A stretch of 63,830 nt of DNA, filler included, from Reclinomonas americana ATCC 50394 (GCA_048213135.1; 6 parts of 5 records of this genome joined end to end with filler, not necessarily neighbours in it); one strand, 5' to 3'. Counted from the whole stretch's first letter, positions 80-57,072 are shown. Numbers and translations are program-made. The notes: generated by a model from the letters alone, not told the origin.

Positions 80-1985
80 GTCCACGGATGACATTGCAGG
101 ACTGTTGGATCTGTGCTTTGAGTCGGAGGTGCACGGCATTGCAGGTGTGGGTGACTGGTGTGATCATTCTCCGCACCTCCGAAACGCTGCTCACTGTGTG
201 TGGCGCAGATGCCATGGCCAAGTACCTGAAGCCGCTGGGCTACAACTATGTCATTCTCGACGACTGCTGGTTTGTGATGCGCCGTGATGAACGCGCATCT
301 CTCTTTCTCAGACATGTGTGCCATGGCATGCATATGCACAGGGCGGCGCATGAACGAGACACGCAGGGACGGCTGCAGGGCGACGCGAAGCGATTCCCCA
401 GTGGCATGAAGGCCCTCGTGGGTGCGTGTGTGTGTGTGCGCTTGTAAGGCAACTTGGTGATTGCGATGATCATATTGCGGACCGCAGACTACGTGCACTC
501 CAAGGGTCTCCGCATCGGCTTTTACACGTGCGCCGGCAACATCACGTGCAAGTACAATCGCCCCGGAAGCTACGGACACTACGAGCTGGATGCGCAGAGT
601 TGCGAAAGACTGGCTGCCGTCACGCTGTGCTGGCTGTTCGTAACGAGGTTTGTTTTTTTGCGTGCACAGCGTTCGCCTCGTGGGGAGCCGATCTGGTGAA
701 GCTCGACAACTGCCACATCCCGCACGATGTGCCCGACCGCAAGGTGCTGTACACGCAGTTCTCGCAGGCGCTCAATGCCACCGGCCGTCCCATGCTCTTT
801 GCGCTGTGCGAGTGGGGTCAAGGAAATCCGGTGTGTACCGCATGGCCACACCTATTTTCTATCGTGTCGCCACACTGACTTAACAGTCTGTTCTTTCTTC
901 ATTGTTTCCGTGCAGTGGGAGTGGGCTGGAGACATTGCCAACTCGTTGCGTTGTCAGCTCGAGATCCTGGTTTAATGATCCGAGATGTGACCATCGTGCT
1001 GCAGGTGGCGCATCCACACCGACCTCCTGCCGTGGTGGTGGGGTTCGCAGGGCACTCTGCAGGTAATCGAATCGGCCGCCAACAGATCGGCGTATGCTCG
1101 TCCGGGGTTCGTGGAATGCGATGTCCTCTCTGCATGGTTTTCTGTCAGTTCCTCACCGCCTCTGCATGTCTCCCACGAATCAGCGCGTGGAATTATCTGG
1201 GTGAGTTTCTTTGTGCGCCACACTCAGTCGCTGTCCTTGTCGCTTACAATTCGTTGCGCTGCAGATATTATGCAAATCCTCACCTTTGAGACTGGCTACA
1301 TTGACTCCAAGACCATGGTAGGGCGTGCGATGCGTACGTTTTCATGTGCTTGATGTGTGTGTGTGACCGACTCCTCCACTCTCCACAGTTCAGCATGTGG
1401 GCCCTGGTCAACTCGCCGCTGGTCACTGGTTGTGACATTCGCGATCTCGGTGCGCCTCGGGTCGTGCACACACTGGCTCGCCATCGCACTCACCTGTTTT
1501 GTCGTGCGCAGGCATCAACAAGCCCAAGGCCGACATTCTCATGAACACCGACGTGATTGCCATCAACCAGGACCCGCTGGCCAAGGCCGGCGACCGCATC
1601 GCTCAGTATGCCGACGGCGGGCAGGTGTGGGCCAAGCCGATCGTCGGCGGCCACGCGGTCGTCCTCTTCAACCCGCACGATGTCGAGACGCGCACCATCA
1701 AGGTTACGTGGGACATGCTCGGCTACAAGGCCGGCACCAAGCTGTCGCTGTACGACGTGTGGACGCACAAGGTGATGCTCCGCGCAGCGGTGCATTGTCT
1801 GTAAGAACACTGCTCACTCGTGCGTGCGCGCATGCGCTGTGCAGTCTCTCGGTGATTTCGTCGACGGCTACGATCACCTCGTGTGGATGCACGGTGAGGG
1901 CGACTCGACCACTGCTCACTGCAATCGCTCCTCTTACCCTCTCTCGCCCACAGATGTGATGATGTTCACCGCCAAGCAGGTGTAA
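80..1985 (+). CDS. Glycoside hydrolase family 27 alpha-galactosidase (multi-exon, 5' end outside window)
   Basis: Spliced translation gives YNYVILDDCW, RFPSGMKALVDYVHSKGL, FASWGADLVKLDNC (nucleophile Asp), ALNATGRPM, NSWRIHTD (acid/base Asp), FSMWALVNSPL, VIAINQDPL; ends TAA 1983-1985; GT-AG introns. Confidence 0.93.
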
Positions 1986-2067
1986 CAACAAGAAAGACGA
2001 GGCCGTGCATTGTGCCGAAGCAATTGTGGGATTGAAGACTGCCTGTCTCTCTCCCTTCACCACTCAC

Positions 2068-2430
2068 TCACGATCCAGACGACAGCACCTCGTTCTCTGC
2101 ACGCGTCAGCGCGCCCTGCTCATCCAGATACCTGGCGTTCTCCAGCCACTTGCACTGCCGACCGATGCGAATCAGCTGATCACACACACTGTCACACACA
2201 CTCTCAAACTCGCACTCACCCACACGCTACACACTTCCGTCAACTCGTCCTGCATCTGCGCCACGCTCTCGCAGTTGCGTCGCAACCGCATCACCTCGCT
2301 CTCCAGTGTGCCCACCGATTGTGCGAGCTCTGTGTGCGACAACGTTTTCCACAAACTCATCGCAACACCCACATGCGCACACACACACGCAACGACGAAT
2401 GACTTCTTCTGCGGCCTCTGCTGTCGCCAT
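2068..2430 (-). CDS. Small (72 aa) coiled-coil protein, 3 exons (2394-2430, 2235-2329, 2068-2154)
   Basis: Two GT-AG introns (64 and 80 nt) join MATAEAAEEVIRQLAQSVGTLESEVMRLRRNCESVAQMQDELTECKWLENARYLDEQGALTRAENEVLSSGS*. Confidence 0.6.
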
Positions 2431-7072: not shown

Positions 7073-7528
7073 TTACTGGGCGTTGCTGGTGTACTTGGTG
7101 ACGGCCTTGGTGCCCTCGGACACGGCGTGCTTGGCCAGCTCTCCCGGCAGCAGGAGGCGCACGGCAGTCTGGACCTCGCGAGACGAGAGGGTCTTGGTCT
7201 TGCCGTAGCGCACCAGGCGGGAAGCCTCGTTGGCGATGCGCTCGAACACGTCGTTGATGAACGAGTTCATGATGTTCATGGCGCGGTTGGAGACACCAGT
7301 GTCGGGGTGCACCTGCTTCAGCACCCTATTGTTGTATACAAGGTCAGTTTGACATGCACACTTGACGAGAGTGAATGAGCATGGGGAAAAACTCAACTTG
7401 TAGATGTAGGACGAGAAGGTCTCCACACGCTTCTTCTGCTTCTTCTTCTTGTCAGCAGAGCTGGACGCGGGGGCGCTCTTCACGGCCTTGGGGGCCTTCT
7501 GGGCCTTAGCAGCGGTCTTCGGCGGCAT
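7073..7528 (-). CDS. H2B: Histone H2B with one 72-nt intron (7326-7397)
   Basis: MPPKTAAK...[41 protein letters not shown]...[22 protein letters not shown]. Confidence 0.98.
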
Positions 7529-8398: not shown

Positions 8399-8734
8399 AT
8401 GTCTGGACGCGGAAAGGGCGGCGGAAAGGGATTCGGCTCTGGCGGCAAGGGCCTGGGCAAGGGCGGCGCCAAGCGCCACAAGAAGGTGTTCCGTGACAAC
8501 ATTCAGGGCATCACCAAGCCGGCTATCCGCCGCTTGGCGCGCCGTGGTGGTGTCAAGCGCATTTCGGGCCTCATCTACGACGAGACCCGCAACGTGCTCA
8601 AGACCTTCCTCGAGAACGTCATTCGCGACGCTGTGACCTACACCGAGCACGGCCGCCGCAAGACCGTCACTGCCATGGACGTGGTCTACGCGCTCAAGCG
8701 CCAGGGCCGCACCATCTACGGCTTTGGTGGATAA
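8399..8734 (+). CDS. H4: Histone H4, intronless, 111 aa with extended N-terminal tail
   Basis: [28 protein letters not shown]...[23 protein letters not shown]. Confidence 0.99.
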
Positions 8735-12200: not shown

Positions 12201-14685
12201 AGCACCGCCGCACCACCAGTTACGAATTCCGCTGATGCAGTTCCTGTTGGGTGCACGCCTCACCTGGGGAATGTGCACAGACTGGTGGCCACGTGCAGCG
12301 TGGACGTATCGGAGGTGAAGCTCTGGGATGCCGACACTGGCCTACCGTTGTCACTTGTGGGCGGGCATTCGGTTGGTGGCGTGTATGCCGTGTGTGCTAC
12401 TCGCGACGGCTCCACGCTGGCTAGCGCCGGCGGCGACGGGACTGTGCGACTGTGGAAAATGACGTACGTCACCTCACTCAACAAGGTCAGGCAGGTGGAG
12501 GTCGCGAGGTTTGTTGCGCCTTTCATATTCCGCCCGCAGCCGATGTGCACGCTCCCTGCTGACTTTCGGTCACGCGTAGACCGGAGGTTGAAGCAACTGT
12601 GGTGTTTCAACGGCATGTGGGACCAGTGTTGTGTGTGGCGTTTGCCGAGGACCGCGACCCGAGCGAGAGCACGCAGTACCAGGTGGTACAAGAGGAGCAA
12701 CCGCCGGCGTGGCCTCCAGCCGAGACGGTGGTGCTGTCGGGTGGCGAAGACTGGACCGTCAATGTGTGGTTCTCACAAGAGGATGTGGTGGCGTGCACTG
12801 GCCACGAGGGTACGTTGCCATGACGATATGTTTTATCCAGTGAGTAAGTGTCGCTAACTGCTGGCGACGCAGGCTCTGTCACATGCGTGGCCGCGTCGCC
12901 GTACGAGTGTGGTCTCGGCTGTTTTGTCTCTGGTTCAGCCGACTGCACCGTTCGCGTATGGGAGCTGTCGTCGTGCGAATGCGTCCACGTTTTGCGCGGA
13001 CACACGCAAGGAGTTGCGTCGACTTGCTGCTTCGTGATCTCGACACGCTGCCACTGACTTTCTTGCAATAGGTCACTGCTGTTGCCTTCTCCGGAGACTC
13101 GATTGCCTCCAGTGCGCAAGACTTGGCCATTCGGCTGTGGTGCGTCGCACGCACGCTTTTTTCGCCATCGCTCAAGCACACTCACTCGTGCACGTCGCAG
13201 GGATCCGATATCCGGGGAATCGCTGCGCATTTTGCGTGGTCACACGTACATTGTCTCGCAGCTGCGATACATTCCCGATCCTGACGGCCGCAGCTTGCCG
13301 ATACTCATGTCGAGTTCGCTGGACGGCACCATCCGACGATGGGCCACCATGCCGCAGCCGTCGGCCTACCGTTCCATGGCCTTCAAGGACATTACCGGCA
13401 TGGTTGTCTCTGGCGACGGTCGCTCCGTGTATGTCATCGATGCAGGGCATTTGTTGCGACTGGATGCGGTCACGGGTTGCCTGCAGGAGGCTTCACCGTT
13501 CCGACTGCGCAAGGTCTGGCTTTCGTTATCGTCGTCGTCGCCACTGGTGAGTGGCCGGCAACTCACCCATGCGTTTGTTTGCAGATTACATGCGCAGCGA
13601 CTTCTGCCAGTGCATTGGTCACCTGTTCGCGCGCTGGCGTGCAAATGTGGATGCCGTCGTCACCAGAGCCGGAAACACTGGATGAGATTGTGGAGGTGTG
13701 ACTTCGTTGGCCCTCCCCTGTTTATGTACTCTTCCTCACCCGCTGGTGGTCGCCGCAGGCCGTGACATCGCGCGTGGCTGTCTCGCGCAACAATGTGTGC
13801 TTGTACATTACTGGAGTGGAGCGCCTGGCGCACCTGTGGAAGCCAGATAGCGACGGATTCATGGATCTGGATCCGGTGCTGTCCACACGTCTGGACGAGC
13901 AGTCGAAGATTGTGTGCATTGCGCTCTCCGACGACGGCCGGCGAGCCCTCACCGGCAACGAGGTCGGTGGTGTTGTGCTGTGGGACGCCGAATCCGGCAA
14001 GAGAATGCACTCGCTGCCGGGCCACACGCAAGCCATTACGTGGTGCGTCGCCGACGGAAAGTCCATGGCGGTAACAGCGACTGTTTCCCTCACTATCGCG
14101 CTCCATCCATGCAGTCTGGCTATCTCAGCCACCGGCGAGTGGGGACTCACGGCGTGCGCGAATCGCGTGAGCAAGCTGTGGAACCTGCCGGGCCAGTACT
14201 CGGTCGACTTGCCGCACCAGGCCATGGCACTGTGCTGTCAGTTCTCGGACGCAGCCTTTTCGACGCCGGTATGTCATTGCTGTGTTGTCTGCGCAACTGG
14301 GGTTTTCCCTCCTTTTCAAACTGCACGCGAAACGCAGGATGGAGGCGCTCTGCGACTAGTCATTGGCAACTCGCGCGGCCACGCGCTGGTGTGGGAGATC
14401 ACCGCCGACGCGGTCAATCTGCTGGTGGACATTGACTGCTTTGTGAGTCCGGGCGTTGAGTTCCCGGCCCGCCAGGTGGCCTTCTGCGCCCCCAACTGCG
14501 TCATTGTGGCTCACATGGGTGTCGTCCGCGCGTGGTACTTTGCCGGTGGCGAACCATCGTTGCTGTGGCGGTGTGGTCCATCGTCGGACTTGGAGGCGCA
14601 CGACGCGCAATTGCGTGGCGTGACCAAGATCGACGTCGCCACGCGGCTGCTGCTGACCGAGCGCAGGGCGATATCGATGAGCTGA
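9237..14685 (+). CDS. NLR-like STAND protein: NACHT-type NTPase + pentapeptide repeats + WD40 repeats
   Basis: Walker A VILVCGAPGSGKSSL, Walker B IVLVLDDWE, winged-helix motif YRWLHPTLLEYFAA, AAANAIT followed by pentapeptides (DLRGVRICGADLS, GAILDGADLDQVSL), many WD40 units (LASAGGDGTVRLW, VSGSADCTVRVWE, SSSLDGTIRRW). Confidence 0.85.
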
Positions 14686-14735: not shown

Positions 14736-16366
14736 CTACTGCTGCTTCCTGCGTGACGGCACCCGTCTGAACGAGTCGACGAGCCAGCGCACTAGGCACA
14801 CGAGCACCAGCACGTGCGCAGCGATGGTGATCATGGCCAGTGCGCGGAACGCAGCGACGCGTTCCCCTGATTCCACCACTGCGTGAGGGGGGAGCAAGTG
14901 AGGAGAACGGAAGTGAATGAACCTCACTTCCCGCGTCCTTAACACATGCACACGCACCCGTGTACCACGTTCGCCACAGCAGCAGCGCGATCGCACTCAC
15001 GAATGCGCAGCCGTACTCCAGTGCCTTGGCAATCGATTGGTTCCACCAGCGGAAATTGTCGGCTGTGCGCACCGCAGCGTGGGTCAGCGGCGGTGCAGGG
15101 AGAGACGCACGTAACTGCTACGCAACGGCATTGCTCGGCGCTGTAGCTCGCTCCAATGTCTTCCTCGAACAGGAGCAGCGGTGGACTCGATACGAGACGC
15201 ACTCCGACGAGAAGGAGCACCACGTACGCCGCACTCCACCACCGCCAGTCGACAAAGACATCAAAGGCCACACGAACGACTGTGTGCTCCCACATGGCAC
15301 TCGGCTGCACTCCACTTCCATGAGTACCTCACCAACACGGCAACACACACACACACACACACACACACACCCACAACCGATGCACAAACCATGTCGCCAA
15401 TGGCAATCAGCGCCGCGTAGTACCACACGGCAATGGGCGCCAACCAACGGTAGCACAGCAGCAGCAGGCGACGCAGCCCGAAAGACCAATCGCTCAGTTC
15501 GATCGGCTGGCGAACCAGACGCTGCGCATGCACACAGAGAGAGAGAGAGAGAGGCGATGAGTGCAAGATGCACCCACGTCAAACACACACCACAAGACCG
15601 ACGCACCACCCACACGGGCAGCGACAGTGCAGCCAGCAGACTTGCACGCGCAAAGTACACAAACAGAGTCGGCACTGCACTGAGTAGCCGCGAGAAAGCG
15701 TCCATGATCCCACCAGAGGCCATCGCCACGAGTCGGGCCTCGGTCGACGACGCAGGCGATGCCGACGACGGCTTTGACGGCATGGCCTGCACGTCGAACT
15801 CGTCGGGATCAAGAGCTCCACTCGACAGCGATGCAGCTCCTGCTTCCGCGCACCACTCAGTGCACAACCCTACGATGCACATACGATCTTTCTTACGTTC
15901 GTACACACCAGCAGGAGAAGGTGATCGCATGACATGGAATCCATCCTGCTGCGCCAGCGGCACACCCAGCGAATCCAACATCCACGCCGATGGACTCATC
16001 CCACGCGTCGACTGGCCCTCCACGCGCCCATAAAAGACCACCACAATCAGCGTGAGGAAGAGGAAGCGTCGAATATACATCGCGCCCTGGAACAGCAGCA
16101 CTTGCTTCCACTTGAGACGTGCCCACCAGTTATGCGCACGTTGCGGCTATCACACATATGTGTGTGTGAGAGAGAAGCACAGAGCGCGAGTGAGAGCGCG
16201 AGTGAGAGAGACAAGTCGCAACTGGCTTTTTTGGCGCCTTCTCGTCGGCCACAGTGACGATGTCCCAGAATTCTTCATCAGTCAGTGGCAGCAGAGGCGG
16301 GTTGCTGGATGGATGCCCCACAATGCCACTGGCCACACCCAGTGCAGTCGCCACCACGTCGGCCAT
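14736..16366 (-). CDS. Uncharacterised multi-pass membrane protein (multi-exon, boundaries approximate)
   Basis: Exons with hydrophobic helices FLFLTLIVVVFY, WLAPIAVWYYAALIAI, WWSAAYVVLLLVGV, LAMITIAAHVLVLVCLV separated by GT-AG introns. Confidence 0.5.
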
Positions 16367-16502
16367 TTTTGCACTAACGTCGCAGGACGTTGGAAAACGA
16401 ACTGCCTGCCTTCCTTCGTTGTGTGCGCCGTGAGTGGACCACAACGCGCGTGTGTGTGTTTCTTGAGTGTGTGTGAGTGTGAGTGTCTTTCTGAGGAGAG
16501 AG

Positions 16503-20299: not shown

Positions 20300-20655
20300 A
20301 TGGTGTGTTGTGCATGCTCTCTCTCTCTCTCTCTCTCTCGCAATCTCTGTCTCTCTCTGCTTCCCTTCCTCACACATGCGAGCACACAGAAATTCCGGAT
20401 CTGTGGCAACCTCGACGCACCCGACTGGCTGCTGGCCGAGCTGGCCTACCTCGCCAAGATTGTTTCGCACACACAAGCACACAAACCACCAAGAAGCACA
20501 CAATGAGAGAGAGAGATGTGTGACACGCACTCGCATTCAATCATTCACTCACTCTTCCACACTCTCACACTCACACAGACATCAGTGCGTTTCAAGCTGG
20601 TGGCCACTCAAGTCGTCTCACAACTCGTCGGCAGTGGCATTGATGTTGCGTCCAT

Positions 20656-20717
<62 letters not shown>

Positions 20718-21491
20718 CCCCATTCTCCTCTCTCATGCATGCATGCATTCACACTGTCCAGCATGAGAAAGTGGCCAAGTTGACAGCCGAGGCCATTCCT
20801 GACTCGTCAGATCTGCGCGGAGCTCTCGCCGCACTCACATTCCTCGTGCGCAACGCTGCGCGCTACTCCATCGACGAGGACACACTGATCAATGAGCTGC
20901 AGCAGCTCGGTCTTCCCAAGGGTGTGTTCGTTTGTTTGTTTGCCTCTCGCTTGTGGTGTGCTGCTCACGAGTGCGTAGAGCATGCGGATGCGCTCAAGCG
21001 GCCGTACCGAGACAACCTGGATGCGTTGCGCGCCAAGTTCAGCGAGCAGAGCATCAGATGTTGCGTCTTTCCGAGCCTTTTTCCTCCTTGCTTGTCTGCT
21101 GATCAATGCCTTTCTCTGTGCGTGCAGTGCCTACTGTGTCGTCGCTGGAGTGGAAGGTCAACTTTGTGGTGTCGAGCAGCAAGAGCGGGGTGCGTCCGTG
21201 TGTGCTTCCTTGTGTGTCGAACGGGCGGCTGCTGACTGTCAGATACAGAGCGCGCATGAACCGTACGTGGAGCTGCTGATGGGCGTGCGCTCGGAGGAGG
21301 CGCAGACGCGCAACAAGCGACCGGAGATGGTGCACTTTTCGGCCACACGCGACAAGTTCGACGTGCTGCTCACTGGTGAGACACTCACGCCAAATGAGCT
21401 TGCTGGAAAAGAACGACTCACCCGATTGATTGCTGCAGAACTGAGCGATGCGTATCGTTTGCTGGAGTCTCTGGAGCGCGAGCTGCGATAA
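20300..21491 (+). CDS. COMMD4: COMM domain-containing protein 4
   Basis: M|KFRICGNLDAPDWLLAELAYLAKI|TSVRFKL, ELQQLGLPKEHAD, SLEWKVNFVVSSS, KFDVLLTEL. Confidence 0.92.
20660..20714. repeat. (CA)n microsatellite in a COMMD4 intron
   Basis: Perfect CA run; shorter CA/CT/GA runs occur in many other introns. Confidence 0.97.
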
Positions 21492-22977: not shown

Positions 22978-23018
<41 letters not shown>

Positions 23019-40045: not shown

Positions 40046-40274
40046 ATGGTGCTCATCGAGATCGACGGCAGCAACATCGACACTGTCGTTGCGTTACTGC
40101 ACAACACTCTGTGTGCGGTTTAGCTCTCTGTGTTGACATGCTGTGCAGATCACGCAAGAGGCCCCCAACCCCAACTACATCTCGCCAGGCCTGATGGCCC
40201 TGGAGAACTCGTACGGGTGCCCGGCGATGCCTGGCGCCGAGTTTGCCAACTGGTACAACGCGAACTACATGTGA
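40046..40274 (+). CDS. Putative microprotein (55 aa from ATG 40046; possibly extended by upstream exons from 39830)
   Basis: Exons 40046-40087 and 40149-40274 joined by a 61-nt GT-AG intron: MVLIEIDGSNIDTVITQEAPNPNYISPGLMALENSYGCPAMPGAEFANWYNANYM*; strong C/G-ending codon bias. Confidence 0.55.
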
Positions 40275-40342: not shown

Positions 40343-41177
40343 TCATTCGACTGGCCTCCACTCGCCCTCCTTGACGTAGAACTCACAGCCGACCTCCTCG
40401 TCCGCCGCCTCCAGACCCCACGTCTCGCCCACTGGCAGCCGAATCCACGTGTGCGCGCCCATCACACGTGCACCACCGCCGCCACCACACTCTCGCAGAG
40501 CACCGCGCAGCACAAAGATCTCCGTCAGCGCCGTGCAGCGCCGGTCGGCCACCGCCGGCGAGTGCCCAGGCGCCCACTGCTCCAGCCGCATCGTATCCGG
40601 AAACGACTCGTGTATGTACAGCACCTTCACCGCCACTCCCGCCGTCTGCGTCGCCTCCCACGGCATACCGCTCGTCTCCACACGCACATGCTCGCGCCCA
40701 CCATGGCCTCCAAACTGGCGCAGCTTGACAAACAACACGGCGCCGTCGTGCGAGCCCGGCGCATGACGATAGCCCTGCGGATTCAGCATGTACGTGCCCG
40801 TGGGGTGCTCGCCGTTGGCATCTGGGCGCAAGGTGAGAAGCACGACGAACAGCAGCAGCAGGCCACACACACACCTTGCCAGCAGCCGCTGAGCACAAGG
40901 ATCTCCTCGCCGTCGGGATGATCATGCTCCGGGAACACACTGCGCTCTGCGTAGCGCACCACACTGGTCACGCGGCCGGACTCCACCGGTCCCTCCAGCG
41001 CCACTCGCCGCCGAAACACCTGTGCGCGACAATCATGATCAGTCAGTGACACAAGTTGTCGCCCACCAATCAAACAACAAAGAGCGCAACTGTGGCAGAT
41101 GGGCTCGCCGTCCACTCCATGGCCTCCGTGTCGACCACCACTCGCACAGAGTAGTCCACGTTGATCTCGTGCGACAT
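40343..41177 (-). CDS. ChrR-like (Cupin_7) double cupin protein, 2 introns
   Basis: MSHEINVDYSVRVVVDTEAMEWTASPS..VFRRRV, VTSVVRY, FPEHDHPDGEEILVLSG, GTYMLNPQGYRHAPGS, LFVKLRQF, EIFVLRG, WIRLP. Confidence 0.85.
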
Positions 41178-41257: not shown

Positions 41258-42990
41258 ATGGCGTTTAGCGGTGGCGGCGCACCGCCACTGCCACCGCCCG
41301 CCTCCTCGTCGTATGAGCAGGACGACCCACTGTCGCTGTGCAGCGGGTGGGACGACGGGAGTGCGCAGCTGGCCATGTCGTACGTCGACGAACAACTGTG
41401 GCACACACCACTCATGTGGTCTCACGAGTTGCGCGCGCACCACCCACACACACACACACACACTTTCTCTTCCTTCTGTGCGTGTATGTGTGTATGGCGG
41501 CGACACGCGTGTCTGATTCTCTCGCAGTGTACCTCTCTTTGATGACTTGATGCTCGGTGCGCCCGCCGACGATGTCGACGACATTGACGAGGCGTTGACG
41601 CTGATGGACACGGACGAGGCGCTGATGATGATGATGGAGGACGACGAGGAGGACGACGGGGATGATGACGCGCGCACTGTCAAGTCGACGAGCACGCGAT
41701 CCACCACCAGTGGCAAATCGTCGCTGGCACCCACAGTGGTGGTGCGCTATCGCCACCCGCAGTATCATGTTCACTCTCTTCAGCAGCAACCTGCCTTGCC
41801 TCCTGTGCTGCCTCCATCGGCGCTCTATTCAGCAGTGGCGACCACGACAACGACGACGACGACGACGATGCGGCCGTTGCACGCGTCTAAAGTCTCGATT
41901 CAGATGCCTGCGGTGCCGCTGCCGCCCCCACCTCCTCCTCCACCTCCTTCTTCCAACATGACAGTGCCGCCATCACCGCCGGCGAGCAGTTGTGGGAGTA
42001 GCACGAGCAGTCGCGTGTCGGGTGGCTCGCGGAGCAGGAAACGTGCGGCGGAGTCTTCGTTGCGCTCGGTGTCGCGGCGCCAGCATCATCAGCAGCTGCG
42101 GTTTGCCAGCATGATGGACGAAGCAGGTAGTCGACATCGTGCGGTGACAGGGGCGACGGCGGCCACAGCGGCAGCAGCTGCGGCGCCGCTGTCGACTCGG
42201 CATTTGGCGTCGCACAAGGCGCTGGTGGGAGTGCATGCTGCTGAGGATTTTGTGCGCGACTCGTTGCGTAGCATGGTGCTGTTGAGCGAGGATCCGTCGC
42301 TGCCACCGCTGCCGCCGCTGCCTCCGGACGACGAGCTGATGGATCCGGCCGCGTGCGTGGAGGAGGAGGAGGATGTGGACGACGATTTGGAGTCGGTGTT
42401 GTTGGATGAAGACGACGATGACGAGGATGATGAAGATGTTGGTGAGGAGGACGACGACGCGCTGCGGGATGAGGATGTCGACGATGTGGTGTTTGGCGAC
42501 GCTGCAGTCGAGGAGGAGGAGGTGGATGGAGATGGAGAGCAACGGCGGGGGATTGTTCTGCTGACGGCGCTGCAGTACATTTTCAGCCAGCGGCGAGAGC
42601 AGGAGGGTGCAGTGCCGCGCGACCCGCGGTTACAGATGCAAGAGTGCACAGCAGGTGCGTGGCAACACCTGTGCTTCTTTTCTTTTCATATCAATCCTCA
42701 CAGTATCTTTCCTCCCTGTGCGCACAGCCCCCCGCTGCACCTCCACCACCAGCTCCACGTCGACATCGACAGCAGTGGCGTTGCTCGAGTCAGTGCCCGC
42801 CGTCAAGCGCTGCACGGCGCCCAAACCGCGCAACCAGAAGCGTGGACGCGCGCAAATGTGGACCAAGCGCAAGAAGGGCAAAAGGAAGAAAACGTGGCTG
42901 TTTGCCCGTGAGCAGACGATTCAAGTCAACGATGGGGATGGAGGAGGAGGAGGAGCGGGAGAAGAAGAAGAGGAATGCGTTTCTGTATAG
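41258..42990 (+). CDS. Low-complexity acidic/Pro-rich protein with basic C-terminal cluster (possibly nuclear)
   Basis: 454-codon open exon with D/E, P and T runs; spliced tail containing KRKKGKRKK. Confidence 0.5.
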
Positions 42991-43034: not shown

Positions 43035-46000
43035 ATGTCGCAAGCGTCAGCATCGGGTGGTCAGTCTGGTGGGCAGCAGAGTGCAGCGCGTCGTGGTGGC
43101 GAGTTGTACGACGAGAAGGGCAAGGAGCGTGACGTGCGCCAGTCGAACATCACCGCCGCCAAGGGTCAGTTTCCCACTCACACGCTTGCTCTCGCCCACA
43201 CACATACACCTCACTCCCCCGCTCACCTCTGTCTCTCTCTGTGTGTGTGACTGTGCGTGTGCGCAGCTGTGGCCGATGGAGTAAGGTGATTTTGCTGTAC
43301 AACTCCCACTTGTCCCTGCGCGTGTGTGTGCAAACGCCTCACACTCAAACACCCTCTCTCTCCACAACCAGAACATCGCTGGGTCCGCGTGGCATGGACA
43401 AGATGGTGAGTGCTGGGGCAGAATGCAAAGAGGCAGAAGAAAGAGAGAGAAGGGGGGAAAGAGAGAGTGTGTTGGGCGAGCTTGAGGATGCTCATGTCAG
43501 CGCGCGCGCGCGCGCGCTCTCACTTTCTGTTTTATCTCACCCCTTATCGTCGCGTCCGTGCAGGTGGTGGATGACCACGGCGAAGTGCTGGTCACCAACG
43601 ACGGTGCCACCATCATGGAGAAGCTGCAAGTGACGCACCCGACGGCGCGCATGGTGCGACATTTGTGCACGTGCACGCACACAGAGAGACACGCACCCGC
43701 AGAGGCATAGAGCAAGAGAGCGGGTTCCATGTGACTGCACACACGCACGCATTGTTGAGTGTGTGTGTGTATATGCTCATGTTGTTTTTTTGGATGGCAG
43801 CTTGTCGAGTTGTCCAAGGCGCAAGACGTGGAGGCTGGCGACGGAACCACATCGGTGGTGGTTCTGGCCGGCTCGCTGTTGGAGGCGTGTGGTAAGCTGC
43901 TGGAGCAGGGCATCCACCCGACCATTATCTCGGATGCGTTTGGACGTGCGGCGGCCAAGTGCGAGGAGATTTTGGAGGGCATGGGTATTCCCATTGACCT
44001 CAGCGATCGGCAGACGCTGGTCGAGGCTNNNNNNNNNNNNNNNNNNNNNNNNNNNNNNNNNNNNNNNNNNNNNNNNNNNNNNNNNNNNNNNNNNNNNNNN
44101 NNNNNNNNNNNNNNNNNNNNNNNNNNNNNNNNNNNNNNNNNNNNNNNNNNNNNNNNNNNNNNNNNNNNNNNNNNNNNNNNNNNNNNNNNNNNNNNNNNNN
44201 NNNNNNNNNNNNNNNNNNNNNNNNNNNNNNNNNNNNNNNNNNNNNNNNNNNNNNNNNNNNNNNNNNNNNNNNNNNNNNNNNNNNNNNNNNNNNNNNNNNN
44301 NNNNNNNNNNNNNNNNNNNNNNNNNNNNNNNNNNNNNNNNNNNNNNNNNNNNNNNNNNNNNNNNNNNNNNNNNNNNNNNNNNNNNNNNNNNNNNNNNNNN
44401 NNNNNNNNNNNNNNNNNNNNNNNNNNNNNNNNNNNNNNNNNNNNNNNNNNNNNNNNNNNNNNNNNNNNNNNNNNNNNNNNNNNNNNNNNNNNNNNNNNNN
44501 NNNNNNNNNNNNNNNNNNNNNNNNNNNNNNNNNNNNNNNNNNNNNNNNNNNNNNNNNNNNNNNNNNNNNNNNNNNNNNNNNNNNNNNNNNNNNNNNNNNN
44601 NNNNNNNNNNNNNNNNNNNNNNNNNNNNNNNNNNNNNNNNNNNNNNNNNNNNNNNNNNNNNNNNNNNNNNNNNNNNNNNNNNNNNNNNNNNNNNNNNNNN
44701 NNNNNNNNNNNNNNNNNNNGCGGCCACCTCGCTCTCCTCCAAGATGGTGTACCAGCAGGCGGATCTGTTGGCCGAGATCGCCGTCGATGCCGTGCTCAGA
44801 GTCGCCGACACGGAAGGCCATCAGGTCGACCTGACTCGTGTGCGCGGTGCGTTGTGGTTGGATTCAGAGTCCCNNNNNNNNNNNNNNNNNNNNNNNNNNN
44901 NNNNNNNNNNNNNNNNNTTAATTAATTAANNNNNNNNNNNNNNNNNNNNNNNNNNNNNNNNNNNNNNNNNNNNTCCCTCCCATGCCCGTCACGTGGCGTG
45001 TGCTCACCTCCCCCTCTTTTTCCGTGTGCAGTGCTGCAAAAGCTGGGCGGCACGGTCGACGACACGGAGCTGGTGAATGGCATTGTGTTCAAGCAAAAGG
45101 CCAGCCACTCGGCCGGTGGACCCAACCGCATTGAGAACGCCAAGATCGGTCTGATTCAGTTCTGCCTCTCGGCACCCAAGACCGACGTTGCGTGCTGTTT
45201 TGGCTGCAGAGAAGAGACGAAGAGAGTTCTCCAGTGGCTTACGTGGATGGTGCTTCGCACAGATGGACAACTCGGTGATTGTCAGCGACTACCACCAGAT
45301 GGACCAGATCATGGCCGACGAGCGCAAGTACCTGCTGCGCCTGGTGCGCCACATCAAGCAGACGGGTGTGTTTGGCGGAGCTCTCATAATGCTGTCGGCA
45401 TGGGGGACTATTCTTTTTTCTCATTCACGCACAAACACACACGCAGGCTGCAATGTGCTGCTTATCCAGAAGAGCATTCTGCGCGATGCCGTGTCACCGC
45501 AGTCGTTGGCCTACCTGGCCAAGGCCGGCATCATGGTGATTCGTGATGTGGATCGTACCGAGATTGAGTTTATTGCCGAGACTCTCGGCTGCATGCCGGC
45601 CGCCAACCTGGCGGGCTTCACTGCCGAGAAGCTCGGTCGCGCCAACCTGGTCGAGGAGGTGCCGACGGGCGAGGGCAAGATTGTGAAGATCACCGGCACA
45701 CCCGACGCCAGGACCACCTCCATTCTGGTGCGTGGCTCCAACAAGCTGATTCTGGAGGAGGCCGAGCGCTCACTGCACGACGCCCTCTGCGTCGTGCGCA
45801 GTCTGGTCAAGCGGAGGTACGTTGCTGTGTGGAACAGGGGGGGAGAAGGGGTGGGGACAATCTCTTCTTCTCTTTGTGGCTGTTGACGATGAGATTCTTG
45901 CTGACACCTCTTCTGAATAACCGTGAGTGATAATGCAAGTGCTGAAACGCGCCCAAGAGAGAGAGAAAGAGAAAGAGCGATTGACCCCACCCTTTTTTTC

Positions 46001-49126: not shown

Positions 49127-52100
49127 ATGGACCCGCCGGCTGTCATCCGCACCGTGACCGCCTGGCTACGTGAACGCGGTGCGTCTCATCGATCGCACAC
49201 ACACACACACACGCATCCTTCCACAACTCTCACTCTCATGCGTGTTCGACAGGTGCGATCCATGGACTCTTCACGGAACCTGGCGACCAACGCGTCACCA
49301 GTGCACTCTTCAAGGCCGTTGCCTGTTGCGTTCCGCGAGCGAGCGCCAGCGCGCGTGTCTCTCTCTCTCTGTGTCTGTGCGTGAGTGCATCAGTTGGGAA
49401 GGGTCCTTNNNNNNNNNNNNNNNNNNNNNNNNNNNNNNNNNNNNNNNNNNNNNNNNNNNNNNNNNNNNNNNNNNNNNNNNNNNNNNNNNNNNNNNNNNNN
49501 NNNNNNNNNNNNNNNNNNNNNNNNNNNNNNNNNNNNNNNNNNNNNNNNNNNNNNNNNNNNNNNNNNNNNNNNNACTGTGCTTTTGTGGAAACCAGCTGCG
49601 GCATCGGCCGTGGATCGCGTGCTGGCCGAGGTGGCGAACGCCAACGACGCAAGTGCAGTGCACGGAGTCGCACAGTTCCTCGTCGACTACGTGAGCACAG
49701 TGGTGGTGCCGTCGGCGGTGCCCGGTGCGCAAGGCAGTCGCCTGGTTCCGCAGCAACTGGCCGCGGATCTGCTCGATTCTCTTCGTTGCGTGGCGTGGCC
49801 TCCATCTCTGTTTGCTGCTGCGTGGCGCACCGGCTGAGACCTGTTCGGTTTCTCCTGGCCAGACTTGCAGGATGCACAGCATCGCTTGCAGCGTCTGCGC
49901 ACGCTGGTGCAGAATGCGAGTTCCGTGGTGCGGCGATCGCTGCATCCGTTGTTCTCCTACTTGGCCTTTGTCGGCCGCAATGTGCACAGCAGTGGGATCA
50001 ACACGGCCGATCTTGCGGCGGTGCGTGGCATCTCTTTCTGTCTCCCTCTTCCTCGCACTCGTTGTGTGACCCTCGATGTGCAGTTGTTTGGTCCGAAGCT
50101 GCTGCGACCACACACTCGCAGTGCGGGCGACCTGGCGCCGACGGCAGACACCACCGGCACCATGTACAGCCAGGCTGCAGCGGCGTACCCGCTGGCCAAG
50201 ATTTTGATTGACAATTACGCCTTTATCTTTGCGGTACGCGACATGCACACTTTGCTGTCTCCCGCCCCGCCTCGACTCACCTCCNNNNNNNNNNNNNNNN
50301 NNNNNNNNNNNNNNNNNNNNNNNNNNNNNNNNNNNNNNNNNNNNNNNNNNNNNNNNNNNNNNNNNNNNNNNNNNNNNNNNNNNNNNNNNNNNNNNNNNNN
50401 NNNNNNNNNNNNNNNNNNNNNNNNNNNNNNNNNNNNNNNNNNNNNNNNNNNNNNNNNNNNNNNNNNNNNNNNNNNNNNNNNNNNNNNNNNNNNNNNNNNN
50501 NNNNNNNNNNNNNNNNNNNNNNNNNNNNNNNNNNNNNNNNNNNNNNNNNNNNNNNNNNNNNNNNNNNNNNNNNNNNNNNNNNNNNNNNNNNNNNNNNNNN
50601 NNNNNNNNNNNNNNNNNNNNNNNNNNNNNNNNNNNNNNNNNNNNNNNNNNNNNNNNNNNNNNNNNNNNNNNNNNNNNNNNNNNNNNNNNNNNNNNNNNNN
50701 NNNNNNNNNNNNNNNNNNNNNNNNNNNNNNNNNNNNNNNNNNNNNNNNNNNNNNNNNNNNNNNNNNNNNNNNNNNNNNNNNNNNNNNNNNNNNNNNNNNN
50801 NNNNNNNNNNNNNNNNNNNNNNNNNNNNNNNNNNNNNNNNNNNNNNNNNNNNNNNNNNNNNNNNNNNNNNNNNNNNNNNNNNNNNNNNNNNNNNNNNNNN
50901 NNNNNNNNNNNNNNNNNNNNNNNNNNNNNNNNNNNNNNNNNNNNNNNNNNNNNNNNNNNNNNNNNNNNNNNNNNNNNNNNNNNNNTTTGATCGCCTTCTC
51001 TCCCTCGCTGGATAGGATGGCGAAAAGTACGTGGCGACGCACGACTTTGTGTCGGAGAGCGATCACGAGTTGTCGGTTCGAGACGGGCAGCTGGTGCTGG
51101 TGCTGTCGGTCGAGGAGAACGGGTGGTGCTTGGGCCAGATTTACGAGGAGAAGCCAGTCTCATCGCAACTGCAACCAATGGGCTGGGTGCCGCTGTCGCA
51201 CTTGCAGAGGGTTCACGTACCGGGCCCAGAGTCGCTGACACGAACGCCCCCCGCTCGCTTCGAGAGAGACTATCCACCCGCAGGCGCCACTGCCGAGACC
51301 GTGAATCCTCTGTACGCGTCGCCAGCAGCCAAGATGCCCGACGTGAGCTTTGTGGCGCACGCTGACGACACGCCGGTGGTGCCTCGGCGCTCCAGCGTCA
51401 CCATCCGTCCGGATGCAGACACCGCACCGATGGCTGCGGCAGCTGGTCGTCCGCGTGCGGGATCCGCCAGTGGTGGAGTGCCACCGCTGATGCCCGCACT
51501 TCCGCAACTGCCACCGGCGCAGCCACAGCCACAGTCGCAGCCGCAGAACACGGGCACCGGTCGTCCTGCCAACATCTCGCCGGGAAGATCACGCGCCTCC
51601 ACTGTCGGAGCGATGCCGAGCGCACTGAACACTGCCAAATTCCTCGCGCATCCCGGTGCCTCGGGCATGCAGCAGCTATCGCTGCCTCTCCCACCGCAGC
51701 TGCCGGCCAGAATTCCGGCACAGGGATCGCAGTCGAACCGCTCCTCTCGTGGTGCGTGCATCCGTGAGAAGCTCTGTGTGTGTGTTTTCCTCGCTGCTCA
51801 TGTGCTGCCTCGGCGCAGATTTGACACCAGCGGCGCCCGCCTCACAAGGAGAAGCCGGTATGCTCAATCCAATCCCAACGCCGCCGGCAATGGCGCGTCC
51901 TGCCCCAGTGGCTCGACCGGCGCTCTCGACACGGAATGCACCCGGTGGCACCAACAATCGCGACTCGTTCCGCGAGTTGCCGCTGGACGAGGAACCAATC
52001 GGTAAATACGCACTACTGTGGTAGTGTGGTAGTGTGTGTGGCTTGTGCACTCACGTGTGGTGATTTGCATCTGCAGTCAATGGCGTGTCCACGGTTCAGC

Positions 52101-54509
52101 CGCCGTCGCAACGGTACGTTTGGAATCGTGTGTTCCATTTCTCCGCCCTCGTCACCGCTGCTCATCTTCTCTCCACATGCAGTGAGGGCGAACTGCGCAG
52201 TGTCAAGTACTGGAAGGACAGAAGCATGATGCTGGAGAATGGTGTGTGTGCTGACAGAAGTCATGCTGTACCGCCGACCCGTGCTTTTGTCAACTAATCG
52301 GTGATTTGCAGAGGCCAACGAGCTGAAGCACAACAATGAGGTTCTGGGGAAGCGAGTCCAGGAACTGGAGCGCGATCAGTCCAATGTGCGTGCGAGGGAC
52401 GGAAGAGGCATTCATGTATTTCCGTGCGAGGCACACGCTGACTGCGTGCGAAAAATTCGTGTAGGTGGAGTTGGAGATTCACACATTGGCCTCGGAGCTG
52501 GAGAGGGAGCGTGAAACCTATCGGGAACTGGAACAGAAGCTGGGTATGGGATCGAATGGGCAAGACGGAGACAGCCCGTCAAAGCGACCATTCGATGCCG
52601 TCGCAGCCGATGTGTTGCGTTTCTTCAATGTTGAACCCTCGTGGAACGGGACTTGCTGCTGATGTTTGGAGACACACACACATACAGACTCAAGGAACAA
52701 GTGCAACATCTGCAAGAGGAACTCATTCGTGCCAAGATGTCCAACGAGCAGCTGCAGTCGGAGAACGCACACTTGCATGGGTGCGTAGTTGACAGTGTGC
52801 ACATGCACACTTCGATGGCTGACTCAATCAATGGTGTCGTGTCAGTCTGGTGCGCAAGTACAAGAAGGAGAACGCGGTAGCTAACGCAGCCGTGGCGGAG
52901 GCGTCTCAAGAAAAGACCAAACTGGAGCAGGAGGTCGAGAAGGACACAATGGCGAACGACCGCGTGCAGCGACTGACACGTGAGAACGCCCGTCTCAAGT
53001 CGTACGTCGACGACTTGATTCGTGAACGATCGAGTGAGTCGAGCTTGCTTGCGTTCTTCACCCCCACGTACTGCCTTCTGAATTGAACTTTTTTGTGTGT
53101 GTGGTAGCACTGAGCCAGCGTGTGGACGAACTGGCGGAGAGACTAAAGGCAGCAGAGGCAAACAGGCCACCGGTTGTCGAGCCTGTTCGGACGGCGACGC
53201 GGACTCAGTCGGTATGTATTCCTCGTCGCCTACCGCATACTCCCGCTGCCCTTCCCCCTCGTTGTTGCCTTTCGCCCTCCCCCCTTCCTCCCCCCTCCTC
53301 CCTCCCTTTCCCCCCTCCCTCCCCCTTTCTGTCTCCCTCTCCCTCCCTCCCCCTTCTGACACGTCTTGTTATTTCACAGCCACTCTCATTCTTGGCCGAC
53401 GTCCCCCCTGCTCCTCGCATGCCATCGTTTTCTGTGTATCCGTACGCACAGCGTGTGCCAGCAGAGTCAGCACCATCACTCGAACCGGCTCCGTCTCGAT
53501 TGTCTTCCGCTCTGCCGATGCCGATGATGACAGACGTCAAGTTGTGTGCACGCGCTCAGTCATTATTCGTGTGTGCGAGTTGCTGACATTTACGCCAGTG
53601 CTGCACCTGCGACATTTGGCGGTCACCACAGACACGGTGAGCCGCTTGACTCCATCTCTTCGGTGGCGGCAGCGGCACCGTCGAACCGAAATCCATCGGC
53701 ATACGAGCTTGACGCATTGGAGCGTCGGCTGCGTGACAGTCTGCGGCGAATGGAGGAATCGAACTCGACTCTTGTGAGTGGTGAACCCGGTGGCGGTGGT
53801 GGTGGTGGGCGAACTACGGCGCCAACAGCAGGCGCCGAATTCCGCTCCTACTACCATCCGCGGTCGGCTGACCCCATTGGTGCGTCGCCCATGCTTCAAC
53901 TCGACGTCAAGCGGCCGGCAATCGTCTCTGCTGCGGCCGATCTTCGCGCACGCACGAGTGCAGTCGATGGCTACTCACCGGTATGTGTGGTGTGGCATGT
54001 TTCTCTGACACTCCACCACCCTTTAGCTCACCAACTTGCACACACAGGATCATGGTGGCGGCCGTGCCGATCCGTTCCGCTCGTTGCAACGCGAACGAGA
54101 ACGCCTCCTACAAGACCAACTGATGTACCCGCTGCCGTCGGTGCTCGGCAACGGCCACATCCCTGTTGCCGGCGTGCGACCCACGACTCCCCCTTCGCCC
54201 GGACGCTCGACCAGTCCATACGACGCACTGGTATCGCGCATACAAAACAAGCTGGAGGAGGTGAGTCGCGATCGCGGCGCACCAACCCGGACCGCCGGCC
54301 GTAGTACGGTGCTGCGAAATCCATTCGAGGCCACCCTGCCGCCAAGCCACCTGCCTCCAGCCTCCTCCTCGTCATCGCGACCCTCCAGCCCCACCGAGTA
54401 CGGCAGTCGACCGTCGCTGAACGGACATGCCTACGCCGGCAACTCCCGAAAGGCTCCTCCACACCGCAAACCGCCACCCCCACACTACGGCGTGTCGGGG
54501 TTGTACTGA
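49127..54509 (+). CDS. RhoGAP-fold (pseudo-GAP) + SH3 + Pro-rich + coiled-coil protein (gapped)
   Basis: WLRERGAIHGLFTEPG, VHGVAQFLVDY, YLAFVGRN..INTADLAA.LFGPKLLRP; SH3 YVATHDFVSESDHELSVRDG..NGWCLG..GWVPLSHL. Confidence 0.75.
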
Positions 54510-55819
54510 ATACACATAACAATCTCTCATAGTTGTGTAAAAAACAAAAGCGGTCGCGAAGGGCGTGGAAAAGGCGGGACCAAAATCGCGCAGTGTCNNN
54601 NNNNNNNNNNNNNNNNNNNNNNNNNNNNNNNNNNNNNNNNNNNNNNNNNNNNNNNNNNNNNNNNNNNNNNNNNNNNNNNNNNNNNNNNNNNNNNNNNNNN
54701 NNNNNNNNNNNNNNNNNNNNNNNNNNNNNNNNNNNNNNNNNNNNNNNNNNNNNNNNNNNNNNNNNNNNNNNNNNNNNNNNNNNNNNNNNNNNNNNNNNNN
54801 NNNNNNNNNNNNNNNNNNNNNNNNNNNNNNNNNNNNNNNNNNNNNNNNNNNNNNNNNNNNNNNNNNNNNNNNNNNNNNNNNNNNNNNNNNNNNNNNNNNN
54901 NNNNNNNNNNNNNNNNNNNNNNNNNNNNNNNNNNNNNNNNNNNNNNNNNNNNNNNNNNNNNNNNNNNNNNNNNNNNNNNNNNNNNNNNNNNNNNNNNNNN
55001 NNNNNNNNNNNNNNNNNNNNNNNNNNNNNNNNNNNNNNNNNNNNNNNNNNNNNNNNNNNNNNNNNNNNNNNNNNNNNNNNNNNNNNNNNNNNNNNNNNNN
55101 NNNNNNNNNNNNNNNNNNNNNNNNNNNNNNNNNNNNNNNNNNNNNNNNNNNNNNNNNNNNNNNNNNNNNNNNNNNNNNNNNNNNNNNNNNNNNNNNNNNN
55201 NNNNNNNNNNNNNNNNNNNNNNNNNNNNNNNNNNNNNNNNNNNNNNNNNNNNNNNNNNNNNNNNNNNNNNNNNNNNNNNNNNNNNNNNNNNNNNNNNNNN
55301 NNNNNNNNNNNNNNNNNNNNNNNNNNNNNNNNNNNNNNNNNNNNNNNNNNNNNNNNNNNNNNNNNNNNNNNNNNNNNNNNNNNNNNNNNNNNNNNNNNNN
55401 NNNNNNNNNNNNNNNNNNNNNNNNNNNNNNNNNNNNNNNNNNNNNNNNNNNNNNNNNNNNNNNNNNNNNNNNNNNNNNNNNNNNNNNNNNNNNNNNNNNN
55501 NNNNNNNNNNNNNNNNNNNNNNNNNNNNNNNNNNNNNNNNNNNNNNNNNNNNNNNNNNNNNNNNNNCCCCTGAATTTTTGTCGATCCCATCTCACACTGT
55601 CGCCCAGTGTCGCACTTCTCGCCAAAAGCGTCCATTTGTGCTCTCCATATGTCAATGCGTGGGCACACGAAGCCACGACGCGTCAGCGCGTGCCGCAGAG
55701 CAACGAGGGGAGTNNNNNNNNNNNNNNNNNNNNNNNNNNNNNNNNNNNNNNNNNNNNTTAATTAATTAANNNNNNNNNNNNNNNNNNNNNNNNNNNNNNN
55801 NNNNNNNNNNNNNCTGTGT

Positions 55820-57072
55820 TTACTTTGGGATCCAGTAGCCTAGCTTGCTCCGAGCTGGATGCTCGGGATTGAAGACCAACTCCTGCCACGCCTTGTGCGT
55901 CTCCTCGACAATGTCGAGAGCGTACTTGACGCCGCGGTACTCGCCGTTGAAGGCGAACTCGTTCTCGCCCTTGCCCTCGGCGGTCTTGTAGTACCGGAAC
56001 CAGTGGCGAATGGCGTCCAGCTGCCCGGGGAACACCTTGTCCACGTCCGTAATGTCTGCAAAGCCACGGTGAGCACCAGCAACACAACAGCAACAACATC
56101 CATCTCACGACACGCACCATTTAGCTCAGCCGCACGCTGGTGATTCTTGCGAATGGCCACCACCTTCCAGTCGGTCTCTCCGCCGTCCACCAAGCCCAGC
56201 ACGCCAAGCACCTTGACGGGCACCGTGTCGCCCATGATGATCGGAGTTTCGCCAATCTCCACCACATCGAGCGGATCGCCGTCGCCCATGAAGCCCGTGT
56301 CGGGGTGCTTGTGTTCTGGGTTCTCCCACGTCCGCGGGAAGCACCCGTAGTTGAACGGCATGGCGCCGTACTTGAAGAATCTGCTCCACGGAACCGTGTT
56401 AAAGAGTGCGCCACACGAAGAGAGGGGAGTGAGCGACTAGGTACGTAACCGCAGTTCGCCCTTCTTGAGATCCTGCTTCAGCGGATTGTGGGGCTCCTCC
56501 TTGTTGACCTCCATCTTGGGGTACGTTCTACAAACAAAACGGACCGTGAGCGCGGTCCACGTGGCATGCATGCACTGCAAAGAGAGACGCGTAACGCAAC
56601 CCCTTGGGGATCTCATTGACAAACGTGAACACCGGATCGCGTGCGCCCGGCGCCGTCAACGCCAGCGGCAAGTCATGCCACGGCGACAGCCGCACACCCG
56701 CAGCAGTCTTGAGAAACACGCGAAACTCCTTCGTCTCTGGCTTGCCAATCAGTTCCACGTGTTGCTGCAAATGCATGCATGCACAAGGTCAGTCATGCAT
56801 TACTCCTCTCTCTGTGTGTGTGTCTCTCTCTACATCGCGTGACTACCTCATTGCTGCCTCTCTCCTCGTCGACAGCGACCCACATCCACATCATGGCAAT
56901 GCACACGCCGACAAACAGCACCGCCACTGTCATCATGCTCGTGCTCTACAACATAAAAACACGCGTGTGTGTCTATGTGCTCAACACACACACACACAAT
57001 GAGAGAGAAGGACGCAACAGTGACAGCGGTGCTGAACCGACGCAGACACCGTCCAAGCATGCCAATGACCAT
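55820..57072 (-). CDS. Family I inorganic pyrophosphatase with N-terminal presequence-like segment and TM helix
   Basis: LSPWHDLPL, VNEIPKGTYPKMEV, NPLKQDLKKGELR, NYGCFPRTWENP, GDGDPLDVVEIG, LVDGGETDWKV, HWFRYYK. Confidence 0.95.

Follow-up and report, generated by a model that had tools for sequence, protein, structure and literature searches.

The window analysed here, that is, the whole stretch of 63,830 bases from Reclinomonas americana ATCC 50394, is eukaryotic nuclear DNA rich in introns, and it carries among others the genes for an alpha-galactosidase, histones H2B and H4, a KIF6/9 kinesin, COMMD4, CCT4 and an inorganic pyrophosphatase. Besides introns with ordinary 5' splice sites (donors) such as GTGCGT, these genes have introns that begin with GTTGCGT or with a close variant of it, and these are called offset donors and offset introns below. 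A preliminary description of the stretch had listed 24 such donors and had proposed that they are a major class that is read in a register shifted by one nucleotide. Our analysis confirmed, as far as sequence can tell, that the offset sites are real donors of major-type (GT-AG, U2-type) introns and that they are abundant, are not repeat copies and have ordinary 3' signals. We give about an even chance to the reading that this second, near-invariant donor motif, N/GUUGCGU (the slash marks the cut) with the rare variants GUUGAGU and GUUACGU, is the normal G/GUGCGU one nucleotide out of step.

Each of the 24 listed positions is indeed the G of GTTGCG followed by T, A or C (22 sites) or of GTTGAGT (2 sites), the types being 17 GTTGCGT, 3 GTTGCGA, 2 GTTGCGC and 2 GTTGAGT, and the statement that most of them lack an exonic AG is correct because AG precedes the cut at 1 of the 24 and G is the last exon base (position -1) at 2. 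GTTGCGT is among the most over-represented 7-mers in the window, simple repeats aside, with 33 copies on both strands where an order-3 Markov model predicts 11.6 (z 6.3), and the base before TTGCGT is G in 33 of its 57 occurrences.

Donor status was judged from homology and from gene models. Homology profiles were made from 50 CCT4, 50 KIF6/9, 37 pyrophosphatase and 23 COMMD4 sequences, and between neighbouring exon hits every frame-open GT..AG pair was tried regardless of motif and the spliced peptides were scored by hmmsearch. Excision of the offset intron gave the best homology score at seven junctions (Table 1). The same motif-blind scans also set ordinary donors, namely, GTTTGT, GTGAGC, GTGAGT, GTGTGT, GTGCGA, GTGCGT and GTACGT, and the second GT inside the offset motif (GTTGC/GT) lost in the scans at 45192 and 21065. 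The CCT4 junction at 45187 is in addition crossed by the Pfam Cpn60_TCP1 profile, at 168-215 and then 217-367. The donor at 56449 reads GTTACGT and, therefore, the extra T occurs before ACGT too. Splicing of H2B at 7397 restores the YIYK/VLKQVHP motif, in which retention would put 24 residues, and the Pfam Histone profile picks up at position 62 after the intron. This 72-nucleotide (nt) intron has no stop codon and a naive open reading frame (ORF) call would yield an H2B with a 24-residue insertion. The exons around the 599 intron match Melibiase_2 at 79-119 and 120-163, gap-free, in Pfam. In the BTB-domain gene the exon upstream of 36627 (42 residues) matches BTB profile positions 27-55 at its residues 6-33, a weak match (E 0.069), and the downstream exon matches positions 67-107 at residues 2-42, so that the junction is gap-free by extrapolation. 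Thus, homology supports nine of the listed sites: 17163, 19367, 45187, 56600, 20645 and 21060 by scans, 7397 by the H2B motif, and 599 and 36627 by Pfam continuity. The first donor of COMMD4, at 20462 (+), is also fixed by homology (aagatt/GTTTCGCAC; 68.6 bits versus 51.5 when that donor is joined to a different acceptor). Although its +6 base is G, this donor is without G at +5 and without the complete offset motif, and it is possibly a degenerate offset donor.

Table 1. Offset introns, listed offset motifs that the later gene models passed over, and mapped genes of the window. "Not listed" means absent from the 24 sites of the preliminary description; bits are the best score versus the next candidate
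Feature	Coordinates	Strand	Motif and 3' end	Length (nt)	Basis and remarks
Alpha-galactosidase offset intron	599..669	+	GTTGCGA..CAG	71	Donor-blind models; Pfam
H2B offset intron	7326..7397	-	GTTGAGT..TAG	72	In frame
Offset intron, not listed	15063..15126	-	GTTGCGT..CAG	64	Donor-blind and donor-aware models; CTGAC 21 nt from 3' end
Offset intron, gene of unknown family	16147..16222	-	GTTGCGA..TAG	76	Donor-blind models; read-through frame meets stop after 90 nt
KIF6/9 offset intron	17163..17227	+	GTTGCGT..CAG	65	Top of 14 candidates, 126.8 vs 116.9 bits
KIF6/9 offset intron	19367..19439	+	GTTGCGT..CAG	73	Top of 29, 48.2 vs 36.5 bits
COMMD4 offset intron with (CA)n run	20645..20761	+	GTTGCGT..CAG	117	Top of 69, 103.2 bits; next different donor 84.5
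COMMD4 offset intron	21060..21127	+	GTTGCGT..CAG	68	Top of 57, 111.2 vs 93.2 bits
Probable offset intron	22967..23072	+	GTTGCGT..CAG	106	Donor-aware model only; upstream exon coding score 15.0 across 70 codons
Offset intron	29693..29758	+	GTTGCGT..CAG	66	Donor-blind; read-through stop after 29 nt
Offset intron preceding EF-hand exon	31728..31793	+	GTTGCGT..CAG	66	Donor-blind; next exon opens at EF-hand_1 profile position 6 (weak match, E 0.011)
BTB-domain gene offset intron	36627..36689	+	GTTGCGT..CAG	63	In frame; donor-blind models
Offset intron, not listed	38341..38552	-	GTTGCGT..CAG	212	Donor-blind models; CTAAC 22 nt from 3' end
Offset intron	40088..40148	+	GTTGCGT..CAG	61	Donor-blind; read-through stop after 33 nt
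ChrR-like cupin gene offset intron	41020..41090	-	GTTGCGC..CAG	71	Donor-blind; read-through stop after 18 nt; downstream exon is Cupin_7 positions 29-64
CCT4 offset intron at KTD/MDN	45187..45262	+	GTTGCGT..CAG	76	Top of 75, 146.2 vs 129.8 bits
Offset intron	49785..49862	+	GTTGCGT..CAG	78	Donor-blind donor; acceptor uncertain, 54 nt (first donor-blind model) vs 78 nt (second)
Probable offset intron, not listed	52614..52687	+	GTTGCGT..CAG	74	Donor-aware only; CTGAT 25 nt from 3' end
Pyrophosphatase offset intron, not listed	56381..56449	-	GTTACGT	69	Top of 16, 193.2 bits, next different donor 185.2; also donor-blind pick
Pyrophosphatase offset intron	56528..56600	-	GTTGCGT..TAG	73	Top of 88, 79.0 vs 71.0 bits
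Listed motif	945..951	+	GTTGCGT		Picked by no model
Listed motif	2387..2393	-	GTTGCGT		Picked by the first, cruder donor-blind model only
Listed motif	13013..13019	+	GTTGCGT		Upstream coding score about zero; models take 13140 GTGCGT
Listed motif	22014..22020	+	GTTGAGT		Picked by no model
Listed motif	24347..24353	+	GTTGCGT		Models favour in-frame donor 24302 GTGTGT, same acceptor
Listed motif	30042..30048	+	GTTGCGA		Models favour 30069 GTTTGC
Listed motif	41428..41434	+	GTTGCGC		Models favour 41398 or 41380, same acceptor 41527
Listed motif upstream of pyrophosphatase coding exons	57012..57018	-	GTTGCGT		No upstream coding signal
Alpha-galactosidase gene	139-1777	+			Pfam
Histone H2B gene	7076-7534	-			Pfam; adjoins histone H4
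Histone H4 gene	8414-8728	+			Translation
KIF6/9 kinesin gene	16500-19654	+			Pfam
COMMD4 gene	20390-21374	+			Pfam
CCT4 gene	43083-46476	+			Pfam
Inorganic pyrophosphatase gene	55859-56773	-			Pfam
WD40 genes					Pfam
Kelch/BACK gene		-			Pfam
BTB exon		+			Pfam
ChrR-like cupin gene		-			Pfam
SH3 protein gene					Pfam
GNT-I glycosyltransferase gene					Pfam
EF-hand protein gene					Pfam

The gene models were generalised hidden Markov models. The donor-blind model used GT, AG and self-trained codon log-odds, and its second version also looked at position -3 and at whether a CTNAY motif precedes the acceptor. The donor-aware run gave an equal bonus to donors with G at +5 and to GTT[AG][AC]G donors. 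The models made errors: genes were merged, and several donors were misplaced and were later corrected by homology (17163, 19367 and 21060). Among the 120 N-free introns predicted by the donor-blind model 11 began with GTTGCG, the commonest donor hexamer, and 1 with GTTGAG, whereas the donor-aware run gave 153 N-free introns, namely, 132 canonical, 18 offset and 3 others. A draw of 120 donors from the total of 7,649 GT sites would be expected to contain 1.22 GTTGCG (p 5.2e-8), which is an approximately 9-fold excess, and against a position-independent donor matrix, the yardstick that the preliminary description had proposed for this enrichment, the 11 compare with 0.58 expected, a 19-fold excess (p 2.6e-11). 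The second hexamer, GTGCGT, was seen 9 times as against 1.55 expected. A coding-asymmetry test for each hexamer gave no enrichment of GTTGCG, but this test is powerless because GTGAGT and GTGCGT were likewise not enriched.

Among the listed sites without a homology test the second version of the donor-blind model picked 16222, 29693, 31728, 40088, 41090 and 49785. The support for the list therefore adds up to 9 sites by homology, 6 by this version and 1 by the donor-aware model only, which is 16 of 24, and four offset sites were found beyond it (15126, 38552, 52614 and 56449). The claim that several donors are pinned by conserved protein sequence held for the sites in CCT4, H2B, pyrophosphatase, COMMD4 and KIF6/9. 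It could not be extended to the whole list, in which eight sites, 945, 2393, 13013, 22014, 24347, 30042, 41428 and 57018, are homologue-free and lie outside the picks of both later models. At 24347, 30042 and 41428 an in-frame ordinary donor competes close by. A comparison of the ORF pieces of 800-1520 with Pfam gave no match by which the 945 donor could be placed. The site at 57018, if real, could be the donor of an intron in the 5' untranslated region that shares acceptor 56765. Only 3 of the 33 copies of GTTGCGT are antisense to a predicted gene. Sense-strand copies also lie at or inside model introns at 4828, 5278, 5608, 23954, 27321 and 49325 (+) and at 61293 and 61298 (-), the one at 4828 being 5 nt from a predicted donor, and some of these may be extra offset donors of missed exons.

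The offset share of introns is 12 of 120 (10%) by the donor-blind model and 18 of 153 (12%) by the donor-aware model, and it becomes about 20 of 153 (13%) when two homology-pinned sites that the models missed are counted in. We therefore estimate that the class makes up 10-13% of the introns in this window, or about one in eight, and for this window the earlier figure of 10-20%, which had been made by eye, is upheld, from 10% donor-blind to 13% donor-aware. Apart from one of 212 nt, offset introns are 61-117 nt long, with a median of 71.5 as compared to 76 for canonical introns. All 20 are GT..YAG (17 CAG and 3 TAG), as U2-type GT-AG introns are, and 14 of 20, as compared to 10 of 12 pinned normal introns, have a branch-like CTNAY motif whose A lies 13-28 nt before the 3' end. 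The offset motif itself is near-invariant, with T at +3 in 18 of 18, G at +4 in 17, C at +5 in 17, G at +6 in 18 and T at +7 in 15, and it is tighter than the motif of the normal class, in which +4 is C or T rather than A in 41 of 54 donors. Pairing between the 5' and 3' ends within 18 offset introns (-4.65 kcal/mol for own ends versus -3.93 for swapped ends) was judged unconvincing. Introns throughout the window end in a (C/T)GCAG-type acceptor, with a branch-like CT(C/G)A(C/T) motif 13-28 nt before the 3' end (for example, 17163-17227, 19159-19227 and 46166-46227), and no obvious polypyrimidine tract was seen in them. Acceptor position -4 may be another difference between the classes, with G in 70% of 53 canonical versus 39% of 18 offset introns, which is a small sample.

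Two other identities for these introns were tried and rejected. U12-type introns resemble the offset class in that they are a second class with a long near-invariant 5' motif living beside ordinary introns. Their signals, however, are the 5' motif RTATCCTT and a tightly spaced branch site, TCCTTAAC, which are unlike GTTGCGT, whereas the offset introns share the CTNAY and YAG signals of their neighbours and have CTSAY branch-like motifs as in the other introns, and no U12-like signals were seen in them. Mobile copies of the introner type were looked for by an all-against-all blastn comparison of the 20 offset introns, in which no match exceeded 12 nt and most were (CA)n.

The exon ends bear on the register. 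When G/GTGCGT and /GTTGCGT are aligned by their cores, six of the seven letters are identical. Exon position -1 is G in 2 of 18 offset donors versus 38 of 54 canonical G+5/T+6 donors (Fisher p 1.5e-5), and with homology-pinned donors only the counts are 2 of 9 versus 11 of 12 (p 0.002). The absence of -1 G fits an offset of one nucleotide, in which the G at intron position +1 is in the slot of the exon G at -1. The last two bases of the offset exons have a log-likelihood of -53.7 under the canonical profile slid by one, -56.6 under background and -70.5 under the unslid profile. Ordinary donors into which a spurious T had been assembled would keep -1 G, yet -1 G is absent, and an assembly artefact is therefore excluded.

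How the offset motif would pair with U1 was examined next to the normal donors. The standard U1 5' end is ACUUACCUG and the U6 box is ACAGAGA. For the nearest-neighbour energies the U1 5' end was taken as AUACUUACCUG, as printed in the accessible portion of PMC4856993, and this is called conventional U1 below. As a reference, all 12 pinned normal donors adopted the canonical register with conventional U1, with energies between -3.8 and -12.3 kcal/mol, and the mammalian GUUAAGU gave -2.4 kcal/mol in the shifted and -1.6 kcal/mol in the bulged register.

In the reading to which we give an even chance, the UGCGU core would lie at +3 to +7 rather than at +2 to +6, and intron G+1 would take the place of exon G-1. 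U1 and then U6 would probably pair with the UGCGU core one nucleotide out of register, as at rare mammalian GUUAAGU sites, and later steps would set the cut so that cleavage remains immediately before GU. The pattern that the preliminary description had called a shifted hexamer (GT+T+GCGT, GT+T+GAGT and also GT+T+ACGT), its abundance and the loss of -1 G agree with this, and U1 pairing as in mammals is the part that the energies did not support.

Several points weigh against this reading. The slid profile is only 2.9 log units above background, and the exon ends firmly show that the -1 G preference is lost, not that a shifted preference has taken its place. The introns compared for -1 G were drawn from our gene model, and errors are present among them. 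The whole analysis covers one 64-kb window, and one third of the listed sites there, 8 of 24, have support neither from the later models nor from homology. The best duplexes of the 20 offset donors with conventional U1 are at +0.5 to -4.0 kcal/mol and in an inconsistent register, and when the register is forced GUUGCGU gives +1.9 kcal/mol shifted and +2.7 kcal/mol bulged, both unstable, and its best unforced duplex is at +0.5 kcal/mol. Assuming conventional U1, GUUGCGU would thus not form the stable shifted helix expected of sites of the Roca and Krainer type. Conventional U1 would also favour A at +4 and +5, and the conserved letters there are G and C (17 of 18 each). Since C at +5 is near-invariant and GUUGCGU pairs unstably, the mammalian mechanism is not simply transferable.

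These energies make altered recognition factors, that is, U1, U6 or other 5' splice-site factors, a live possibility on modelling grounds. The explanation would be a dedicated or altered factor, namely, a U1 with a UGCGU-complementary 5' end, a second U1-like RNA or U6 variant, or a GUUGCGU-binding protein, and we regard it as possible, although on the unlikely side. It would account for a 7-nt motif that is near-invariant and tighter than that of the normal donors, and for the bad pairing of GUUGCGU with conventional U1 in all registers. With a partner complementary to the AG/GTGCGT consensus of the window, a purely hypothetical RNA, the offset donors reach a median of -5.8 kcal/mol, 11 of 20 in the shifted register, 8 with the UGCGU core alone and 1 bulged. 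In addition, 41 of 54 normal donors have C or T rather than A at +4, a choice that U1 position 5 would not favour. On the other hand, the pinned normal donors pair acceptably with conventional U1 and, to our knowledge, the U1 5' end hardly varies among eukaryotes, GC-rich ones included, which counts against an altered factor. A bolder form, which we hold to be rather unlikely, is that a UGCGU-complementary reader, whether a U1 with a changed 5' end or an additional U1-like small nuclear RNA (snRNA), tolerates two spacings between cut and core. If this is true, G/GU-GCGU and N/GUU-GCGU would co-exist because of it and the distance from the core to the scissile bond would be variable genome-wide.

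A bulged register, in which U1 pairs with G+1 and U+2, U+3 loops out and pairing resumes at GCGU, would keep all pairs of the normal GUGCGU helix, and the site at 56600, the only one of the offset sites whose exon ends in GG, folds in this way. A bulge at +2/+3 is known for human sites, as stated in the accessible portion of PMC4856993. Such a register, however, predicts an equal or stronger need for -1 G, the opposite of the 2 of 18 versus 38 of 54 found, its forced energy is poorer (+2.7 versus +1.9 kcal/mol for the shifted one), and only 1 of 20 sites prefers the bulge with the GC-adapted partner. We therefore consider it improbable. That there is no signal at all, and that composition, mis-traced junctions, mobile introner copies or a T added by assembly to GTGCGT donors explain the class, is largely refuted and in our view highly improbable: the window is rich in TG/CG and contains long runs of (GT)n, its assembly is gapped and stitched, eight listed sites are unconfirmed and the powerless coding-asymmetry test showed no enrichment, but seven listed sites either come out on top in the motif-blind scans or give back the H2B motif, GTTGCG donors are 9 times as frequent as expected from all GT sites and 19 times as frequent as the position-independent matrix predicts, the introns share only their first 7 nt and (CA)n, and the -1 G preference is absent.

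The one-nucleotide offset has counterparts in human donors, for which a shifted register and one-nucleotide bulges, including +2/+3, are described in the accessible portion of PMC4856993. There, all validated noncanonical registers together are 1.5% of 201,541 human sites, and the row for the +2/+3 bulge has 68 predicted sites, 54 after curation (Roca et al. 2012, via the same portion of PMC4856993). The mammalian /GUUAAGU sites (Roca and Krainer 2009, as given there) share with the offset donors the extra U after GU, the cut at GU, the displacement of the usual +3 to +6 letters by one place downstream and a -1 G that is unneeded. They differ in that they are very rare in human, whereas here such donors are about 10-13% of the introns of the window and supply its commonest hexamer, and in that their core is AAG and not GCG, with -2.4 versus +1.9 kcal/mol on conventional U1. 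The human +2/+3 bulge, so far as that portion of PMC4856993 describes it, likewise has one extra nucleotide after GU that is fitted into the U1 helix, but its model keeps the -1 G preference that is absent in the offset class. The genome of Andalucia godoyi is intron-poor with GT..AG introns, and the accessible part of PMC7050145 does not mention donor motifs. No such donor class was apparent among the top matches listed in a search of open-access full text, in which the genome paper of this organism could be missed, and one on jakobid introns, also of open-access text, yielded no relevant paper.

Noncanonical registers that are rare exceptions in human, on the figures in the accessible portion of PMC4856993, thus contrast with an offset donor that is the commonest single donor motif in this window. 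Such an organism would be a test bed for how the cut site is fixed independently of the U1 helix and for how much slack U6, U5 and Prp8 have between GU and the paired core. Gene finders with a single donor matrix will misplace about 1 in 8 junctions here, as our own model did at three sites.

The gene map was made by a Pfam scan of 116 ORF pieces with high coding potential. H2B (-) and H4 (+) are arranged divergently over 7076-8728. For a CCT4 exon the closest database match, at 76%, is from the jakobid Seculamonas and most other matches are near 70%, while the matches of KIF6/9 and pyrophosphatase do not exceed 57% and 69%, respectively, and the best match among metagenome contigs is 71%. Of the window, 7,124 bases are N, in 23 runs, and the rest has a G+C content of 58.6%. 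Five identical spacers, at 25178-25277, 44874-44973, 55714-55813, 59781-59880 and 61782-61881, each consist of 44 N, TTAATTAATTAA and 44 N. They look like a six-frame-stop linker that stitches contigs, so that the flanking pieces are possibly not truly adjacent, and one of these linker-like spacers falls within the CCT4 gene region. An Rfam scan of the window gave no family at its gathering score and no snRNA gene. At an E cut-off of 1 there were weak matches to Rfam microRNA families at 41444-41497 (-), 46527-46646 (+) and 63133-63410 (+), which we regard as chance (25-31 bits versus gathering scores of 80-100; E 0.05-0.45). Microsatellites of (GA)n and (GT)n/(CA)n are very abundant, with GAGAGAG 237 times and GTGTGTG 216 times in the window, both strands counted, and several of them lie within short introns (for example, 20660-20720 and 22980-23015).

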